Sequence record: NC_047769.1
DNA length: 44,559 bases
Source of the DNA: Escherichia phage AAPEc6
Strand: one strand, 5' to 3'
Each line of letters starts with the position of its first letter. Within the stretch, counting starts at the first letter, position 1. Positions 55 to 44,559 of the stretch are shown here, piece by piece. The translations under genes and the position numbers were made by a program. Under the pieces are notes generated by a model. That model ran no database searches. It was not told the DNA's origin and saw nothing but the letters and a program-made list of their open reading frames with translations.

Positions 55-500
55 TAGGTTATTCCTTGATGGATGGCTTAGGTTAGCCTTAGTGGACTAC
101 CTTAGTTAAAGCCTTAGTGCTTCACTTAGTATCAGCTTAGTAGTGTACCTTAGTAAGTCTTAGTGTCTTCTCTTAGTGATTGCACATGCAAGCATGTGAG
201 ATGCCATTAGGTCGCGGTCGGTAGACCGCTAAAGAAGGGGAATAGTAATAAGATGCAGTAGGAGGAACACCAGAAACCTAGCCAACCTAGCCTATCCTAG
301 CTCTGTATCTATTGCTTTTCCTTAGTCTCACATGTTAGACAACCTATCTTATTCTTAGTGATGATAACTTAGTGTTGACAAGGTAATCTTAGTGTAATAC
401 TATGCATCACGTAGGCGGTGCTGAGGCACCTAGTAGCCAGCTAGTAAGGCATACGAAGAGACTAGCGCTTACATTGCTCTTTAACAATTTGCTTAGTGTA
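55..500 (+). repeat. Left-terminal array of short CTTAGT(G/A) repeats (about 14 copies), plus CGTTCACTC x2 at 12-40
   Basis: Repeated ccttagt/cttagtg motifs read directly in the first 500 bp; analogous short-repeat arrays flank T7-group genome ends. Confidence 0.6.
375..403 (+). promoter_or_regulatory. Candidate host sigma70 early promoter (TTGACA, 17-bp spacer, TACTAT)
   Basis: Perfect -35 hexamer with a 4/6 -10 hexamer at correct spacing, upstream of the first early ORFs. Confidence 0.3.
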
Positions 501-1696: not shown

Positions 1697-1810
1697 ATGG
1701 AAAAGCAATATAACTTTATCTTTTCAGACGGTGTAACCCTGAAGTGTTCCCTACGATTCGCACAAATTCGTGAGGAAGTACTAGGCACTACATACAAACT
1801 ATTTAGCTGA
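1697..1810 (+). CDS. Small ORF (37 aa) directly after ocr
   Basis: ATG at 1697 with an upstream purine-rich stretch; position analogous to the small genes after T7 0.3; weak. Confidence 0.2.
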   Translation: MEKQYNFIFSDGVTLKCSLRFAQIREEVLGTTYKLFS

Positions 1811-1825
1811 CACTATAAGAGAAGG
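1801..1825 (+). promoter_or_regulatory. Variant phage-type promoter (ATTTAGCTGACACTATAAGAGAAGG)
   Basis: Keeps the GACACTATA core but deviates around +1; possibly a weak or early-class promoter. Confidence 0.35.
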
Positions 1826-2175: not shown

Positions 2176-3099
2176 ATGACTGCTGAAAACATCATTCTGT
2201 CTGTTCGTGAAGCTGCAACCACTGAAATCAAGCAACACTTAGACAATATCGGCACTTCTTACATCAAAGTTGGCGCTTGTCTGAATGAATTACGCGGTGA
2301 TTTCGAAGGTCAAAAAGACTTTTTAGCTTATGTAGAATCAGAGTTCGGCATCAAGAAAGCACAATGCTACAAGCTGATGAGTGTAGCCCGTGTCTTTGAA
2401 GGAGATGAACGCTTTAAAGGTGTGGCTATGCGTGTAATGCTGGCGCTCGTTCCTTTCGCTGATGAGAATATAATCATGGAGAAGGCCGCAGAACTCGCCG
2501 CAGATGGCAAGCTGGACACTAATGCCGTAAATGCCCTGATTGATCCTAAGAAAGAGACAAAGGCCGAGACGGTACAATCTAAGGCTGAGGCGGTAAAACC
2601 GCAGGAGAATGCGACTGAGGCCGCAGAAACTATGCAAGGACATGCGACCTTTGAGGATTTCATCTTAGAGAAGGCGAAAGAGGAGTTACAAAGTGTGCCG
2701 CCAGTAAGTGAGTCGGGTAACGACGAATCCGCACCGTGGGAAGATGAAAGCAAGCCGGAAGCGCCTAAGGCCGCGCCACTGGATAACACGGCTAACACCG
2801 AGAATGCCGCTATTGCTGGTCTGCTGGCACAAATTAAAGCACTGACTGAGCAATTACAGGCAGCCAATGACCGCATCGCCTCCTTAAGTAGCGCACGCGA
2901 AAGCAAGAAAGCAGCCGCGCCTATGCTGCCGCAATTCAAATCTTCCTGCTTCTATGCTCGCTTAGGTTTAAGCGCTGAGGAGGCAACGAAGAAAACAGCA
3001 GTTAACAAGGCACGCCGCGAACTGGTTAAGCTGGGATACGGTGAAGGCCATGAGGCATGGCCCTTAATCTCTGAGGCAGTAGAAGAGTTGACTAAGTAA
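2176..3099 (+). CDS. Early protein of unknown function (307 aa; folded N-domain, acidic linker, C-terminal coiled coil)
   Basis: ORF track 2167..3099 (GTG); ATG at 2176 after AAGGTGA; sits where T7 has the 0.7 kinase but shows no kinase motifs. Confidence 0.6.
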   Translation: MTAENIILSVREAATTEIKQHLDNIGTSYIKVGACLNELRGDFEGQKDFLAYVESEFGIKKAQCYKLMSVARVFEGDERFKGVAMRVMLALVPFADENIIMEKAAELAADGKLDTNAVNALIDPKKETKAETVQSKAEAVKPQENATEAAETMQGHATFEDFILEKAKEELQSVPPVSESGNDESAPWEDESKPEAPKAAPLDNTANTENAAIAGLLAQIKALTEQLQAANDRIASLSSARESKKAAAPMLPQFKSSCFYARLGLSAEEATKKTAVNKARRELVKLGYGEGHEAWPLISEAVEELTK

Positions 3100-3162: not shown

Positions 3163-5790
3163 ATGCAAGACCTACACGCTATTCAACTTCAACTTGAAGA
3201 AGAAATGTTTAACGGCGGTATCCGTCGCTTTGAAGCGGACCAACAACGCCAGATTGCATCCGGTAATGAATCAGACACGGCATGGAATCGCCGCTTATTG
3301 TCCGAGTTAATCGCGCCAATGGCTGAAGGTATTCAGGCATACAAGGAAGAGTATGAAGGTAAAAGAGGCCGTGCACCGCGTGCATTAGCTTTCATTAACT
3401 GCGTAGAAAACGAAGTGGCAGCATATATCACGATGAAAATCGTTATGGATATGCTGAACACGGATGTAACCTTGCAGGCTATAGCCATGAATGTAGCTGA
3501 CCGCATTGAGGACCAAGTACGTTTTAGCAAGCTGGAAGGTCACGCCGCCAAATACTTTGAAAAAGTTAAGAAGTCACTTAAGGCAAGTAAGACTAAATCA
3601 TATCGCCATGCGCACAATGTAGCGGTAGTGGCTGAAAAGTCTGTCGCTGACCGTGATGCGGACTTCTCCCGCTGGGAGGCATGGCCTAAAGATACCTTGT
3701 TGCAAATAGGCATGACCTTGCTAGAAATCTTGGAGAATAGCGTATTCTTCAACGGGCAACCTGTTTTCCTTCGTACCTTGCGCACTAACGGCGGCAAGCA
3801 TGGCGTTTACTACTTACAGACTAGCGAACACGTGGGTGAATGGATAACTGCATTTAAAGAGCACGTAGCTCAGCTGAGTCCAGCCTATGCACCTTGCGTT
3901 ATTCCTCCGCGTCCGTGGGTTTCTCCGTTTAATGGTGGCTTTCACACCGAGAAGGTGGCAAGTCGCATCCGTCTAGTAAAAGGTAACCGCGAGCACGTCC
4001 GCAAGCTGACTAAAAAGCAAATGCCAGCGGTTTATAAGGCTGTTAATGCATTGCAAGCCACTAAATGGCAGGTTAACAAGGAAGTGTTGCAGGTAGTAGA
4101 AGATGTTATTCGTCTAGACCTCGGTTATGGTGTACCTTCCTTTAAGCCGCTCATTGACCGCGAGAACAAACCAGCTAACCCTGTTCCTCTTGAGTTCCAA
4201 CACCTGCGAGGCCGTGAACTGAAAGAGATGCTTACGCCAGAACAGTGGCAAGCTTTTATAAACTGGAAAGGAGAATGTACCAAGCTGTATACCGCTGAAA
4301 CTAAGCGCGGAAGCAAGTCGGCGGCAACCGTTCGCATGGTTGGACAGGCCCGTAAATACAGCCAGTTTGACGCAATTTATTTTGTGTATGCACTGGACAG
4401 CCGCAGCCGTGTATACGCGCAATCTAGCACGCTCTCGCCGCAATCAAATGACTTAGGCAAGGCATTGCTCCGTTTTACCGAAGGGCAGCGTCTTGATAGC
4501 GCTGAGGCGCTTAAGTGGTTTTTGGTGAACGGGGCGAATAACTGGGGTTGGGATAAGAAAACTTTTGACGTGCGCACCGCTAACGTGCTGGACGGCGAGT
4601 TTCAAGACATGTGCCGCGACATTGCAGCCGACCCGCTGACCTTCACTCAATGGGTAAATGCCGACTCCCCTTACGGCTTCCTTGCATGGTGCTTTGAATA
4701 TGCGCGTTATCTTGATGCACTGGATGAAGGCACGCAAGACCAATTCATGACGCACCTCCCAGTCCATCAAGATGGTAGTTGTTCTGGTATACAGCACTAC
4801 AGTGCTATGCTACGCGATGCAGTAGGTGCGAAAGCAGTAAACCTTAAGCCCTCTGACTCTCCTCAAGATATTTATGGTGCCGTTGCGCAGGTAGTAATTC
4901 AGAAGAATTATGCATACATGAATGCAGAGGCTGCGGAAACCTTCACTTCTGGCAGCGTGACTTTAACAGGTGCGGAACTGCGTAGTATGGCTAGTGCGTG
5001 GGATATGATAGGAATCACTCGCGGCCTAACCAAAAAGCCCGTAATGACACTACCTTATGGCAGCACACGTCTAACCTGCCGTGAGTCAGTGATTGATTAT
5101 ATCGTTGATTTAGAAGAAAAAGAGGCCCAACGGGCTATTGCGGAAGGGCGTACCGCCAATCCTGTACACCCTTTTGATAATGACCGTAAAGACAGCCTTA
5201 CACCTAGCGCAGCTTATAACTATATGACAGCTTTAATCTGGCCTTCTATTTCGGAAGTGGTTAAAGCTCCTATAGTGGCAATGAAAATGATTCGTCAGCT
5301 TGCCCGTTTCGCAGCTAAAAGGAATGAAGGCCTAGAGTATACCCTGCCTACTGGCTTCATCTTGCAACAAAAGATTATGGCTACTGATATGCTCCGCGTA
5401 TCTACTTGCTTGATGGGAGAAATCAAGATGAGTCTACAGATTGAAACAGACGTAGTGGATGAAACGGCAATGATGGGCGCTGCTGCTCCTAACTTTGTGC
5501 ATGGTCATGATGCCAGCCACCTTATCTTAACAGTCTGCGACCTTGTTGATAAAGGGATTACATCTATCGCAGTTATTCATGACTCTTTTGGCACTCATGC
5601 AGGCCGTACAGCCGACCTTCGTGATAGCTTAAGGGCAGAAATGGTGAAGATGTATCAAGGCCGTAATGCGCTGCAAAGCCTGCTAGATGAGCACGAAGAA
5701 CGCTGGTTAGTTGATACCGGAATACAAGTACCAGAGCAAGGGGAGTTTGACCTTAACGAAATCTTAGTTTCAGACTATTGCTTCGCATAA
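3163..5790 (+). CDS. Single-subunit DNA-directed RNA polymerase (T7 gene 1 family)
   Basis: 875 aa; motifs [29 protein letters not shown] and C-terminal ...DYCFA match T7/SP6-type RNAPs; AGGAG RBS. Confidence 0.97.
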
Positions 5791-5863
5791 TATTAATAGG
5801 CCATTCCTTCGGGAGTGGCCTTTCTTTTACCTACTACCTGTAACATTTCATTAACATAAAAGT

Positions 5864-5879
5864 GTCTCACATGTGAGAC
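5864..5879 (+). repeat. 16-bp perfect palindrome GTCTCACATGTGAGAC (copy 1), just upstream of a promoter
   Basis: Read directly; identical to the copies at 6045, 8256 and 30670. Confidence 0.9.
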
Positions 5880-5881
5880 TT

Positions 5882-5903
5882 ATTTACCGGACACTATAGG
5901 ATA
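5882..5903 (+). promoter_or_regulatory. Phage RNAP promoter (ATTTACCGGACACTATAGGATA)
   Basis: Matches the window consensus ATTTACTGGACACTATAGAAG at most positions. Confidence 0.6.
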
Positions 5904-5940
5904 ACCGTCGGAGACGGGAAAGAAAGGGAAGATAAAGGAT

Positions 5941-6000
5941 ATAAAGGAAGTAATAGGTATTAAAGGTTATATAGGTTATCTAGGAATACCTATTACCTTC
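5941..6000 (+). other. AT-rich block with phased TAGGT(A/T)A repeats and an 11-bp inverted repeat (GTAATAGGTAT ... ATACCTATTAC); candidate replication origin or RNase III site
   Basis: Inverted repeat read directly (5950-5960 pairs with 5986-5996); position between RNAP and gene 1.1 with two flanking promoters mirrors the T7 primary origin. Confidence 0.45.
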
Positions 6001-6044
6001 TTCCTTCCTCTTATTACCACTCAGAGGAAGGGCAGACCTAGGTT

Positions 6045-6060
6045 GTCTCACATGTGAGAC
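6045..6060 (+). repeat. 16-bp palindrome GTCTCACATGTGAGAC (copy 2)
   Basis: Read directly. Confidence 0.9.
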
Positions 6061-6065
6061 TTCGT

Positions 6066-6088
6066 ATTTACCGGACAGTATAGATAAG
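6066..6088 (+). promoter_or_regulatory. Variant phage promoter (ATTTACCGGACAGTATAGATAAG)
   Basis: Consensus-like with CAGTATAGA replacing CACTATAGA. Confidence 0.45.
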
Positions 6089-6113
6089 ATTAACTCACTT
6101 TGGAGATTTAACC

Positions 6114-6245: not shown

Positions 6246-8234
6246 ATGGCTATTATTCAGAATGTACCGTGTCCTGCCTGTCAAAAGAATGGACATGATA
6301 TTACTGGCAACCATCTCATGATATTTGATGATGGTGCTGGCTACTGTAATCGTGGACACTTTCATGATAATGGTAGACCTTACTATCACAAGCCGGAAGG
6401 TGGCATCGAGATAACCGAGTTACCTATTACTGGCAATATCAAATATACACCTTCTCAATTCAAAGAAATGGAGAAGGAAGGGAAGATAAGCGACCCTAAA
6501 TTACGTGCCATCGCACTAGGTGGTATGCGTATGAAAGACCGTTGGGAGGTCATGAATGAGCAAGAAAGGGCAGACCAAGAAGCAGAGTGGAAACTTGATG
6601 TTGAATGGTTCCTTACGCTTAAGCGTAAGAACCTTGTTTCCCGACACATTCGCGGCGACATTTGCGCATTGTATGATGTACGTGTCGGACACGATGAAGA
6701 GGGTAGAGTCTCGAGGCATTACTATCCACGCTTCGAGAAAGGTGAGCTAGTAGGCGCTAAGTGTCGCACATTACCTAAAGACTTTAAGTTTGGTCATTTA
6801 GGTAAACTCTTTGGTATGCAAGATCTTTTCGGGATGAATACTTTGTCTCACGTGTTAGACAAGGGAAGACGAAAGGATTGCTTGCTTATTGTGGGTGGGG
6901 AACTGGATGCGCTAGCAGCGCAGCAGATGCTCCTTGATTCTGCCAAGGGTACTAAGTGGGAAGGCCAACCTTACCATGTATGGTCTGTTAACAAAGGGGA
7001 GTCTTGCCTTGAAGAGATTGTGCAGAACCGTGAACACATCGCCCAATTCAAGAAGATTATTTGGGGCTTCGATGGGGATGAGGTAGGGCAGAAGCAGAAC
7101 CAGCAAGCGGCTCGCCTGTTTCCTGGCAAATCCTATATCCTTGAGTACCCTTCTGGCTGCAAAGATGCCAACAAGGCATTGATGGCTGGCAAGGCTAAAG
7201 AGTTTGTTGATGCATGGTTTAATGCCAAGCCATCTGATGAAGTCTTTGGTAGCCAGATTAAATCTATCGCATCTCAAAGGGATAAGCTCAAGGCTGCACG
7301 TCCAGAGCAAGGACTATCATGGCCTTGGCCTAAGCTGAACAAGGTAACGCTAGGTATTCGTAAGAACCAGCTTATCATTGTAGGTGCAGGGTCTGGTGTA
7401 GGTAAGACTGAGTTCCTTCGTGAAGTAGTTAAGCACCTCATTGAAGAACACGGTGAATCTGTGGGCATCATTTCTACAGAAGACCCGATGGTCAAGGTGT
7501 CCCGTGCTTTTATCGGCAAGTGGATTGATAAGCGTATTGAGTTACCTCCAACCAACGACCCGAAAGAAGACGGATACCGTGAGGTGTTCGACTATACCGA
7601 GGAAGAAGCTAACGCCGCCATTGATTATGTAGCTGATACAGGTAAGCTGTTTGTAGCTGACCTAGAGGGTGACTATTCGATGGAAAAGGTAGAGCAAACT
7701 TGCCTAGAGTTTGAGGCTATGGGTATTTCTAATATCATCATTGATAACTTAACGGGGATTAAATTAGATGAGCGTGCTTTTGGTGGGAAGGTTGGTGCAC
7801 TTGATGAATGCGTCAAGCGGATTGGTACTATCAAAGACCGACACCCGGTTACTATATTCCTTGTATCACACCTTACACGTCCTCCGGCAAACCGTACCCA
7901 ACACGAAGAAGGTGGCGAAGTTATCCTTTCTGACTTCCGAGGCTCAGGCGCTATCGGATTCTGGGCATCTTACGCCTTGGGGATTGAGCGTAATACAAGA
8001 GCTGAAACGCTTGACGAAAGGACTACCACGTACATCTCATGTGTCAAAGACCGCGACCAAGGTATCTACACTGGAACCAAGGTCATGCTTAAGGGTGACA
8101 TTCAAACCGGACGTTTAATGGAACCACAAGCCCGTACTAAGTCATTTGATACAGGTGAAGCAAGGCAACAAGAAGTACCAGATTTACCGGACACTATAGA
8201 AGAGACTAACTTCGATGAAGAAAGTGAGTTCTGA
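6246..8234 (+). CDS. DNA primase/helicase (T7 gp4-like)
   Basis: 662 aa; N-terminal zinc ribbon (CPAC...C..GHFH), Walker A GAGSGVGKT, acidic C-terminus ending ...FDEESEF. Confidence 0.95.
   Translation: MAIIQNVPCPACQKNGHDITGNHLMIFDDGAGYCNRGHFHDNGRPYYHKPEGGIEITELPITGNIKYTPSQFKEMEKEGKISDPKLRAIALGGMRMKDRWEVMNEQERADQEAEWKLDVEWFLTLKRKNLVSRHIRGDICALYDVRVGHDEEGRVSRHYYPRFEKGELVGAKCRTLPKDFKFGHLGKLFGMQDLFGMNTLSHVLDKGRRKDCLLIVGGELDALAAQQMLLDSAKGTKWEGQPYHVWSVNKGESCLEEIVQNREHIAQFKKIIWGFDGDEVGQKQNQQAARLFPGKSYILEYPSGCKDANKALMAGKAKEFVDAWFNAKPSDEVFGSQIKSIASQRDKLKAARPEQGLSWPWPKLNKVTLGIRKNQLIIVGAGSGVGKTEFLREVVKHLIEEHGESVGIISTEDPMVKVSRAFIGKWIDKRIELPPTNDPKEDGYREVFDYTEEEANAAIDYVADTGKLFVADLEGDYSMEKVEQTCLEFEAMGISNIIIDNLTGIKLDERAFGGKVGALDECVKRIGTIKDRHPVTIFLVSHLTRPPANRTQHEEGGEVILSDFRGSGAIGFWASYALGIERNTRAETLDERTTTYISCVKDRDQGIYTGTKVMLKGDIQTGRLMEPQARTKSFDTGEARQQEVPDLPDTIEETNFDEESEF
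6845..6860 (+). repeat. Palindrome variant GTCTCACGTGTTAGAC inside the primase-helicase CDS
   Basis: Read directly; one mismatch from the perfect palindrome. Confidence 0.6.
8182..8204 (+). promoter_or_regulatory. Phage promoter (ATTTACCGGACACTATAGAAGAG) embedded in the helicase C-terminal codons
   Basis: Near-consensus; encodes ...DLPDTIEET... Confidence 0.6.
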
Positions 8235-8255: not shown

Positions 8256-8271
8256 GTCTCACATGTGAGAC
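8256..8271 (+). repeat. 16-bp palindrome (copy 3) with conserved flanks ggcttGTCTCACATGTGAGACagg, downstream of the helicase
   Basis: Read directly; followed by a T-rich stretch, hairpin/terminator-like. Confidence 0.9.
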
Positions 8272-9400: not shown

Positions 9401-9416
9401 GTCTCACGTGTGAGAC
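9401..9416 (+). repeat. 16-bp palindrome GTCTCACGTGTGAGAC (copy 4, CACGTG core)
   Basis: Read directly; flanks gggtt...cagcc extend the inverted repeat. Confidence 0.9.
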
Positions 9417-14254: not shown

Positions 14255-14270
14255 GTCTCACGTGTGAGAC
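14255..14270 (+). repeat. 16-bp palindrome GTCTCACGTGTGAGAC (copy 5), upstream of a promoter
   Basis: Read directly. Confidence 0.9.
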
Positions 14271-30669: not shown

Positions 30670-30685
30670 GTCTCACATGTGAGAC
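30670..30685 (+). repeat. 16-bp palindrome (copy 6) with the same 24-bp context as copy 3 (ggcttGTCTCACATGTGAGACagg)
   Basis: Read directly; lies between two internal virion protein genes. Confidence 0.9.
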
Positions 30686-44119: not shown

Positions 44120-44559
44120 AGGTTAATATCTTAGTGTACACAAGGGCAGACCTAGGTTTGCTCTTAGTGTATTTACAATGGAGGTCTTATGTATATACCT
44201 ATGGAAGCAATAGTAGGTGGCCTATGCTTGTTGATAGGTTTCGTTATAGGCTTAATAGCAAATCCTTAGTCCTGTACAAGGATTAACCAAAGTCAAAATT
44301 TTGATATAGGCGTGTGTCAGCTCTCTCGCCCTCGCCCTCGCCGGGTTGTCCCCATAGGGTGGCCTGAGGGAATCCGTCTTCGACGGGCAGGGCTGAGGTA
44401 CTCATTGGCTAGTACAAGGGAGGCGGAGGGAACGCCTAGGGAGGCCTAGGAATGGCTTAGTGGTGGACAAGGTGATTACCTTAGTGAAGCCTCTTAGTGC
44501 ATTCCTGAGGCCATTCAGGGCGTTTATGAGGGATTGACAGGGTGGGCGTGGGTGGGCTA
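44120..44559 (+). repeat. Right-terminal region: CTTAGTG repeats (about 6 copies) flanking a GC-rich block (44310-44450)
   Basis: Same heptamer family as at the left end; local GC-rich stretch with CCCTCG repeats is atypical for this genome. Confidence 0.55.
44189..44269 (+). CDS. Hydrophobic miniprotein (26 aa, single predicted TM)
   Basis: GGAGG 4 nt upstream of the ATG; MYIPMEAIVGGLCLLIGFVIGLIANP. Confidence 0.25.
   Translation: MYIPMEAIVGGLCLLIGFVIGLIANP

Follow-up and report, generated by a model that had tools for sequence, protein, structure and literature searches.

T7 provides the background for the early region considered here. Its gp0.7 is a protein kinase that also shuts off host transcription, its gp2 inhibits the host RNA polymerase (RNAP), gp2.5 is an SSB, gp3.5 is both lysozyme and RNAP regulator, and gp2.5 and gp4 bind DNA polymerase through their C-terminal tails, while replication uses a primary origin at phi1.1A/B and a secondary origin at phiOL. 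SP6 and K1-5 both count as classic phages; the RNAP of the former is in standard laboratory use, and K1-5/K1E-like phages are therapy candidates. For J-domain proteins, mutants of DnaJ at H33 and D35 established that the His-Pro-Asp (HPD) motif is needed for stimulation of Hsp70.

The DNA analysed here (44,559 nucleotides, NC_047769.1, hereafter the window) is the complete genome of Escherichia phage AAPEc6, a K1-5/K1E-like Vectrevirus (Autographiviridae, Molineuxvirinae), and the region of interest is 92-97% identical to many K1-5/K1E-like phages. Of ten T7 proteins tested by tblastn, only Ocr and RNAP are shared, and gp0.7, gp2, gp2.5, gp3.5, gp5.5 and gp5.9 have no homologs in the window detectable by this search. 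The gene of interest, gp6, is bounded by ocr (1326-1694; match to Pfam ocr at E=1.3e-41) and by the gene for the RNAP (3163-5790, 875 aa), with one 75-aa gene intervening in the ocr-gp6-RNAP interval; coordinates and Pfam match agree with a sequence-only reading of this DNA, which had placed the gene at the position of T7 0.7. That reading had also seen no kinase motifs, and in fact gp6 has neither a kinase Pfam match nor similarity to T7 gp0.7, whose best tblastn match in the genome (E=1.5) falls outside gp6. The gene is preceded by the Shine-Dalgarno sequence AAGGTGA and is organised as follows.

2176..3099, plus strand: gp6 open reading frame, ATG start, 307 aa plus stop
2197..2550, plus strand: N-terminal all-helical domain, residues 8-125, a probable divergent DUF3102-type helix-turn-helix (HTH)
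2356..2397, plus strand: predicted recognition helix K61-F74 (KAQCYKLMSVARVF), with putative specificity positions Q63 and K66
2551..2790, plus strand: disordered linker of acidic composition (net charge -11), spanning residues 126-205
2722..2751, plus strand: short linear motif DESAPWEDES, pattern acidic-x-P-[W/F]-[D/E]
2791..2916, plus strand: long leucine-zipper-like helix, residues 206-247 (AF2), presumed dimerisation element
2917..3096, plus strand: C-terminal J-like domain, residues 248-307
3034..3051, plus strand: GYGEGH loop at the HPD position of the J-domain, HPD absent

Homologs of gp6 include K1-5 gene 6 and K1E gp6 (87-89% identity) and an SP6 protein (63%), and gp6 belongs to PHROG 4571 (E=8e-131), which is labelled as of unknown function. 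Searched directly with the protein, neither Pfam and NCBIfam nor PDB sequences or PADLOC gave a significant match; for anti-defence or defence-associated families in particular, there was no PADLOC match and no host-takeover PHROG annotation. Papers in the searchable literature that mention gp6 give its function as unknown. Neither functional studies of gp6, of DUF3102 or of the palindromes described below, nor the palindrome sequences themselves, were found in the searchable literature, outside of which lie the 2004 SP6 and K1-5 genome papers. We note that homologs in KY295891, KY295892, PP179315 and PP179317, as well as protein cluster P0041, carry the label "endolysin" or "andolysin"; neither sequence nor fold supports a lysin, and the label looks like a propagated mis-annotation.

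By tblastn, gp6 is found at full length in 212 phage records, with identities down to approximately 30%, and is therefore a real gene and no chance ORF. The hosts of these phages include E. coli, Salmonella, Klebsiella, Proteus, Erwinia, Pectobacterium and Vibrio, and further Pseudomonas, Marinomonas, Shewanella and Aeromonas, and in every genome or long contig examined gp6 sits one to three genes 5' of the RNAP gene. An exhaustive search of 1.84 billion representatives gave 131 clusters at 50% identity, with both terminal domains retained in 112. Judging by this distribution, gp6 belongs to the deeply conserved core of SP6-like phage genomes and does not behave like a fast-evolving accessory anti-defence gene. 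Its neighbours are more variable: in several metagenomic relatives (L023, L026, L029 and L030) a gene for an S-adenosylmethionine lyase (T3 SAMase type) lies directly 5' of gp6, at the position where AAPEc6 has ocr and then gene 5, i.e., different anti-restriction genes swap in beside a constant gp6-RNAP block. An apparent N-terminal extension of 40-150 residues before the HTH domain, which may reflect either true domains or mis-called start codons, is seen in 82 of 128 family representatives and is missing from the K1-5/SP6 clade.

The AlphaFold2 model of gp6 (49-sequence alignment, mean pLDDT 81.5) begins straight with the HTH domain. Residues 10-125 are folded with pLDDT ~95, bearing out the folded N-terminal domain of the sequence-only reading, and the net charge of this domain is acidic. 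Its core, a long helix plus the helix-turn-helix, matches positions 9-77 of the DUF3102 (PF11300) profile. AAPEc6 gp6 itself has no DUF3102 match in Pfam, being too divergent for the model; its homologs P0239 (29 bits), P0240 (25 bits) and P0211 (25 bits) pass the gathering score of 24.4 bits, and 16 of 49 family members match at E<=0.01. By transitive homology through such relatives, gp6 is a probable member of DUF3102. The top-ranked PDB folds are the helix-turn-helix domains of KorB, ParB and VirB, and the N-terminal (CTP-binding) domain of ParB is absent from gp6, with no ParBc match in Pfam or NCBIfam. In the predicted recognition helix, K61 is conserved at 95% across the family, while positions 63 and 66 are hypervariable.

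The linker that follows (residues 126-205) is disordered and acidic, as had been read from the sequence. Across the family its length ranges from 50 to 124 residues, and it is net negative in 104 of 112 representatives. The motif acidic-x-[A/P/V/I]-P-[W/F]-[D/E] occurs in 35 of the 112, as DESAPWEDES in AAPEc6 and, for example, as EDEDEDDIPFDVD or PPFDTG in others. We take this motif to resemble the acidic aromatic tails of E. coli SSB, T7 gp2.5 and T7 gp4, from which it differs in being internal and not a C-terminal tail.

The C-terminal coiled coil that the sequence-only reading had proposed holds for one part of the region only. The helix formed by residues 206-247 has a clean heptad register (a/d positions hydrophobic in 9 of 12 cases), whereas residues 248-307 form a separate globular domain. 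Structure prediction, which that reading had suggested as a check, recognises in this domain a J-domain fold, i.e., a known fold of the kind it had said would count against its view of the protein. The domain is compact, with pLDDT ~96 in the full model and pLDDT 93.7 and pTM 0.75 when modelled alone, and comprises helices I-III, of which II and III form an antiparallel hairpin. The basic helix II is retained, and a nearly invariant PxLPQF strap lies at residues 249-254. At the level of sequence the likeness is faint: AAPEc6 gp6 has no DnaJ match in Pfam at E<=1, being under the gathering threshold, and the family profile aligns to E. coli DnaJ with an hhalign probability of 42%.

Between helices II and III, G-E-G occupies the position of His-Pro-Asp, as part of a conserved GYGxGH; other clades have [FYW][TNS]xx. 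HPD is missing in all clusters of the family but 2-3 of 131. Among 115 recognised C-domains only P0248 has a canonical HPD, and P0252 and P0244 carry HPD too; P0248 and P0252, rare relatives of like architecture, also carry PF00226. These HPD-bearing relatives are known from contigs no longer than 2.4 kb, and a scan of viral contigs with P0248 returned a single dubious match, to the linker. The ancestral J-domain of the family is taken to have carried HPD. Owing to the loss of HPD, the absence of helix IV and the sub-threshold score, stimulation of Hsp70 ATPase by gp6 is unlikely. Conservation of the replacement loop suggests that the domain would have been re-purposed after HPD loss, beyond mere decay.

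A scan for terminators brought up a perfect 16-bp palindrome. Allowing up to two mismatches, GTCTCAC(A/G)TGTGAGAC occurs in 8 copies in the window (0.13 expected; none of 100 shuffles reached 8), and the consensus here is GTCTCAC-RT-GTGAGAC. The sites and the transcription signals closest to gp6 are listed below.

325..340, no strand assigned: palindrome site 1, GTCTCACATGTTAGAC, 35 bp upstream of the -35 element of the first sigma70-type early promoter
1801..1817, plus strand: consensus promoter for the phage RNAP, ATTTAGCTGACACTATA, within the early region and ahead of gene 5, gp6 and the RNAP gene
5798..5821, plus strand: strong intrinsic terminator, ends the early unit with gp6 and the RNAP gene
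5864..5879, no strand assigned: palindrome site 2, GTCTCACATGTGAGAC, followed after 2 bp by the phage promoter at 5882
6045..6060, no strand assigned: palindrome site 3, followed after 5 bp by the phage promoter at 6066
6845..6860, no strand assigned: palindrome site 4, within the primase/helicase coding sequence, where it specifies LSHVLD
8256..8271, no strand assigned: palindrome site 5, at the tip of the 13-bp terminator-like hairpin that follows the primase/helicase gene
9401..9416, no strand assigned: palindrome site 6, at the tip of a terminator-like hairpin that precedes the DNA polymerase gene
14255..14270, no strand assigned: palindrome site 7, followed after 15 bp by the phage promoter at 14286
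30670..30685, no strand assigned: palindrome site 8, at the tip of a terminator-like hairpin located between the genes for two internal virion proteins

Seven of the eight sites are intergenic, and three lie 2, 5 and 15 bp upstream of phage-RNAP promoters (chance ~1e-5), whose consensus is ATTTAC(C/T)GGACACTATA. The hairpins at 8256, 9401 and 30670 have 13 bp, G.U pairs, U-rich tails and a dG of -18 to -20 kcal/mol, and these three sites probably act at the RNA level too; the promoter-adjacent palindromes have no extended stem or U-tract. None of the palindromes matches Rfam. The early operon is served by sigma70-type promoters at 375 and 959, and the phage promoter at 1801 makes gp6 transcribable by host and phage RNAP alike, which implies that the phage RNAP feeds back positively on both its own gene and gp6.

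Several other repeats and signals surround these elements. The CTTAGT hexamer forms strand-biased arrays, with 13 plus-strand copies at 88-497 (eight spaced 10-13 bp) and 6 copies at the right end (44130-44498), for a genome total of 54 (30 expected). These are probably end-proximal repeat arrays, similar to those common to the T7 supergroup, such as flank the T7 terminal repeats, and a role in concatemer processing or packaging is possible. Three exact copies of GCTCTTTAACAA (476-487, 1021-1032 and 1233-1244; 0.29 expected) were found, at least the first two of them downstream of the early promoters at 375 and 959. GCTCTTTAACAA is identical to the core of boxA, the antitermination element of E. 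coli rrn operons; this suggests recruitment of host Nus factors by the early operon, with host RNAP reading through to the RNAP gene. As possible targets of gp6, both the CTTAGT arrays and the GCTCTTTAACAA repeats were dropped, neither being palindromic. In the interval between gene 5 and gp6 (2121-2168), a hairpin with a 10-bp stem (TATAGCCTGCCTGAGTGGGCTATG) is followed on its 3' side by ATTTACTTACACTATAAGG, which resembles a phage promoter but has one base less than the consensus spacing. For this reason the promoter-like ATTTACTTACACTATA at 2148, immediately before gp6, was rejected as a promoter. The interval may hold a site of processing together with a promoter that is weak or has decayed. 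Finally, the block at 5822-6110, between the early terminator and the primase-helicase operon, is AT-rich (GC 0.37 vs 0.452 genome-wide) and contains two tandem phage promoters, each preceded by a palindrome, as well as an 11-bp inverted repeat, GTAATAGGTAT...ATACCTATTAC. In position and layout, this block is similar to the T7 primary replication origin.

Comparison across phages links the palindromes to gp6. A recurrent GTC...GAC inverted repeat is present in 12 of 12 complete gp6-positive genomes (the window, K1E, SP6, cp4, K22PH164C1, PM116, Era103, VEN, Alpheus, Tola, KL01 and ECBP5), with 4-9 copies each against ~0.01 expected, and absent from all four gp6-negative, RNAP-encoding podophages (T7, HC15b2, MPK6 and HTVC019P). 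An early count of perfect palindromes had made the 16-mer appear specific to Vectrevirus, a view overturned by degenerate half-sites and 2-3 bp spacers. The positions are syntenic, with one palindrome near the left end and one or two straight after the RNAP gene, and the module of a palindrome, 0-15 bp and a phage promoter recurs across lineages though the promoter sequences differ. While the outer GTC/GAC is constant, the inner bases vary by lineage and track gp6 residues 63 and 66, given here in that order with the half-site found.

Q/K or S/K: GTCTCAC, in seven lineages from four host genera plus metagenomes
Q/R: a single site of the GTCTCAC type, in lineage L024
Q/N, Q/H or S/N: GTC(C/T)AAC, in five lineages
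W/K: GTCTC(C/T)TA, in Tola and KL01
Y/R: GTCTAC(C/A), in two contigs
H/R: GTCTCCT
W/R: GTCTAGT

In an 11-genome test set, residue 66 is the sole clean separator of half-site classes among 250 ungapped gp6 columns, being K in 7 of 7 members of one class and H or N in 4 of 4 members of the other; five further "disjoint" columns are noisy, two lying upstream of the start codon and three at the variable start of the linker. For P0129 and P0130, which have Lys66, GTCTCAC was predicted beforehand, and both carry GTCTCAC. They are the nearest relatives of P0131, which has Asn66 with GTCTAAC sites. Since P0131 is 50% and 41% identical to P0129 and P0130 and 37% identical to SP6, this represents a second, independent switch from K to N. 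We note that gp6-positive phages are one clade, and the covariation consequently comprises few independent events.

Within the primase gene, the palindrome contains the codons TCT CAC (Ser-His) in AAPEc6 and TCT AAC (Ser-Asn) in SP6, so that LSHVLD corresponds to MSNVLD in the SP6 copy, as per the SP6 half-site. On this comparison, the primase protein sequence has given way to a genome-wide change of half-site. Half-site variants also occur within genomes, e.g., GTCTCAC...GTTAGAC, which in an RNA stem would leave a C.U mismatch and therefore favours degeneracy of a DNA half-site over a purely structural RNA.

A second, 18-bp inverted repeat, GTACTA-N6-TAGTAC, was observed in the clade with Trp63 gp6, again close to the left end and directly behind the RNAP gene, at the following positions.

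KL01 (L032): 6478, 6562, 6757 and 15003
ECBP5 (L020): 5995, 6061 and 14590
L027: 7125 and 7187

Among partial contigs, L027 (W/Q at residues 63/66) carries this repeat and L028 (Q/D) carries TAGTAGCTACTA. GTACTA-N6-TAGTAC would be either a second family of binding sites or the target of the W/Q variant.

We infer from where the palindromes lie, from their joint occurrence with gp6 and from the way in which residue 66 covaries with them that gp6 physically binds the palindromes of its own genome as a dimeric, sequence-specific adaptor, a reading we hold to be fairly probable. Made from the early operon, gp6 would read the 16-17 bp GTC...GAC palindrome through its DUF3102-type HTH, with residues 63 and 66 setting the inner bases of the half-site, and the zipper helix would join two chains. 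The dimer would occupy palindromes on incoming and replicating phage DNA, where the P[W/F][D/E] motif of the linker and the J-like domain may recruit or hold a partner (phage RNAP, replisome, or host DnaK/DnaJ). The output could be the early-to-middle switch in transcription, the organisation of replication start, or both. Within the adaptor reading, control of transcription, whereby gp6 would act on phage-RNAP promoters or on the boundaries of transcription units, is a tentative proposal that we place somewhat below even chances.

One version of the adaptor reading, which we regard as rather doubtful, makes gp6 a replication-origin-binding organiser that would mark the promoter regions at the left end and after the RNAP gene and recruit primase-helicase or DNA polymerase via its acidic aromatic motif, by analogy to polyomavirus large T antigen or to initiators remodelled by DnaK/DnaJ. 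The best-conserved sites, at the left end and (one or two) at the tandem promoters after the RNAP gene, match the positions of the T7 origins, and the latter two sites of the window flank an AT-rich stretch in the region 5822-6110 (GC 0.37; genome, 0.452); the motif resembles the C-terminal tails of T7 gp2.5 and gp4, and an ancestral HPD would also fit. However, sites are found at terminator-like hairpins and within genes, far from likely origins, and to our knowledge T7-type replication in vitro requires no initiator protein. Mapping of origins in SP6-like phages was not found in the searchable literature. A broader form of the adaptor reading, which we consider unlikely, posits a new regulatory system of SP6/K1-5-like phages and casts gp6 as a T-antigen-like hub for palindromes beside phage-RNAP promoters and likely origins, whose re-purposed J-domain and SSB-tail-like motif would couple host chaperones or the phage RNAP/replisome to those sites, with the circuitry of T7 gp0.7, gp2 and lysozyme replaced and residues 63 and 66 acting as a re-programmable recognition code.

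Two explanations remain. In one, close to the host-takeover or anti-defence role of the sequence-only reading, gp6 is a host-directed effector with DNA binding secondary or absent, which sequesters or redirects DnaK/DnaJ through its J-like domain or titrates SSB-interacting enzymes by mimicry of the SSB tail (DDDIPF). Early expression beside ocr, the J-domain fold with its basic helix II, the net acidic N-domain and linker motifs such as EDEDEDDIPFDVD, presumably similar to the C-terminal tip of SSB, are all in line with such an effector. Yet the HPD needed for Hsp70 stimulation is absent in nearly all clusters, the SSB motif needs a free C-terminal carboxylate while that of gp6 is internal, and PADLOC gives no match. 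Moreover, gp6 is a syntenic core gene in phages whose hosts range from E. coli through Vibrio to Pseudomonas, which is not typical of accessory anti-defence genes, and the covariation of residue 66 with a phage cis-element is left unexplained. The strongest evidence connects gp6 with an element in the DNA of the phage itself and not with a host target. The J-like domain and the acidic motif still leave room for a host partner (DnaK/DnaJ or SSB-interacting proteins), and a host-takeover component may exist, but we regard a purely host-directed effector as quite improbable. Very improbable, in our view, is that the palindromes are RNA or transcription elements independent of gp6 (phage-RNAP terminators, pause sites or hairpins at transcript ends), linked to it by shared ancestry plus coincidence, with gp6 serving some unrelated function. 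The extended hairpins with G.U pairs and U-rich tails at 8256, 9401 and 30670 look like such elements, the T/C asymmetry between arms that is usual in SP6 would be a G.U wobble in RNA, and the gp6-positive phages form a single clade. Against this, where half-sites differ inside one genome, an RNA stem would contain C.U or A.G mismatches, and promoter-adjacent sites have no stem extension or U-tract. The 7-base arm is conserved over phages of E. coli, Erwinia, Vibrio and Pseudomonas where a structural stem could drift by compensatory substitutions, Rfam has no match, and residue 66 tracks base 5 of the half-site in two independent clades.

If the dimeric adaptor reading holds, a protein listed as "hypothetical" for twenty years has a concrete candidate function plus a cognate DNA element, with eight sites here and homologous site sets in every relative examined. 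DUF3102 would likewise gain its first candidate function, palindrome-specific DNA binding, assigned here rather than inherited. The family also documents a J-domain that appears re-purposed after HPD loss, with HPD-bearing relatives still extant. Should the 63/66 rule be confirmed, it would provide a small set of orthogonal DNA-binding specificities beside the promoters of single-subunit RNAPs, with possible use in the synthetic control of SP6-type transcription. The parts (an HTH palindrome binder, a zipper, a J fold) are known; their combination, the replacement of HPD, the palindrome set and the recognition rule were not found in the searchable literature.

With T7 gp0.7, gp6 shares its place in the early operon, immediately before the RNAP gene, and a similar protein size; in contrast, it shows no sequence similarity (tblastn E>1), has no kinase domain and adopts an unrelated fold. 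Its N-domain probably shares the core of DUF3102 (PF11300), a helical domain that occurs, uncharacterised, in proteins of phages, prophages and plasmids, and is predicted to be an all-helical HTH, perhaps akin to those of KorB, ParB and VirB; the proposed multi-copy, 16-bp perfect palindrome parallels KorB operators or parS sites. For the C-domain, the closest known proteins are J-domain proteins (DnaJ/Hsp40, PF00226) and the HPD-less Tim16/Pam16, from which gp6 differs in having GYGxGH in place of HPD, no helix IV and an added PxLPQF strap on the N-terminal side. As a whole, gp6 recalls polyomavirus large T antigen, an early protein that binds palindromes at its own promoter and origin and has a motif-bearing linker and a J-domain, a likeness that we regard as a functional analogy only.
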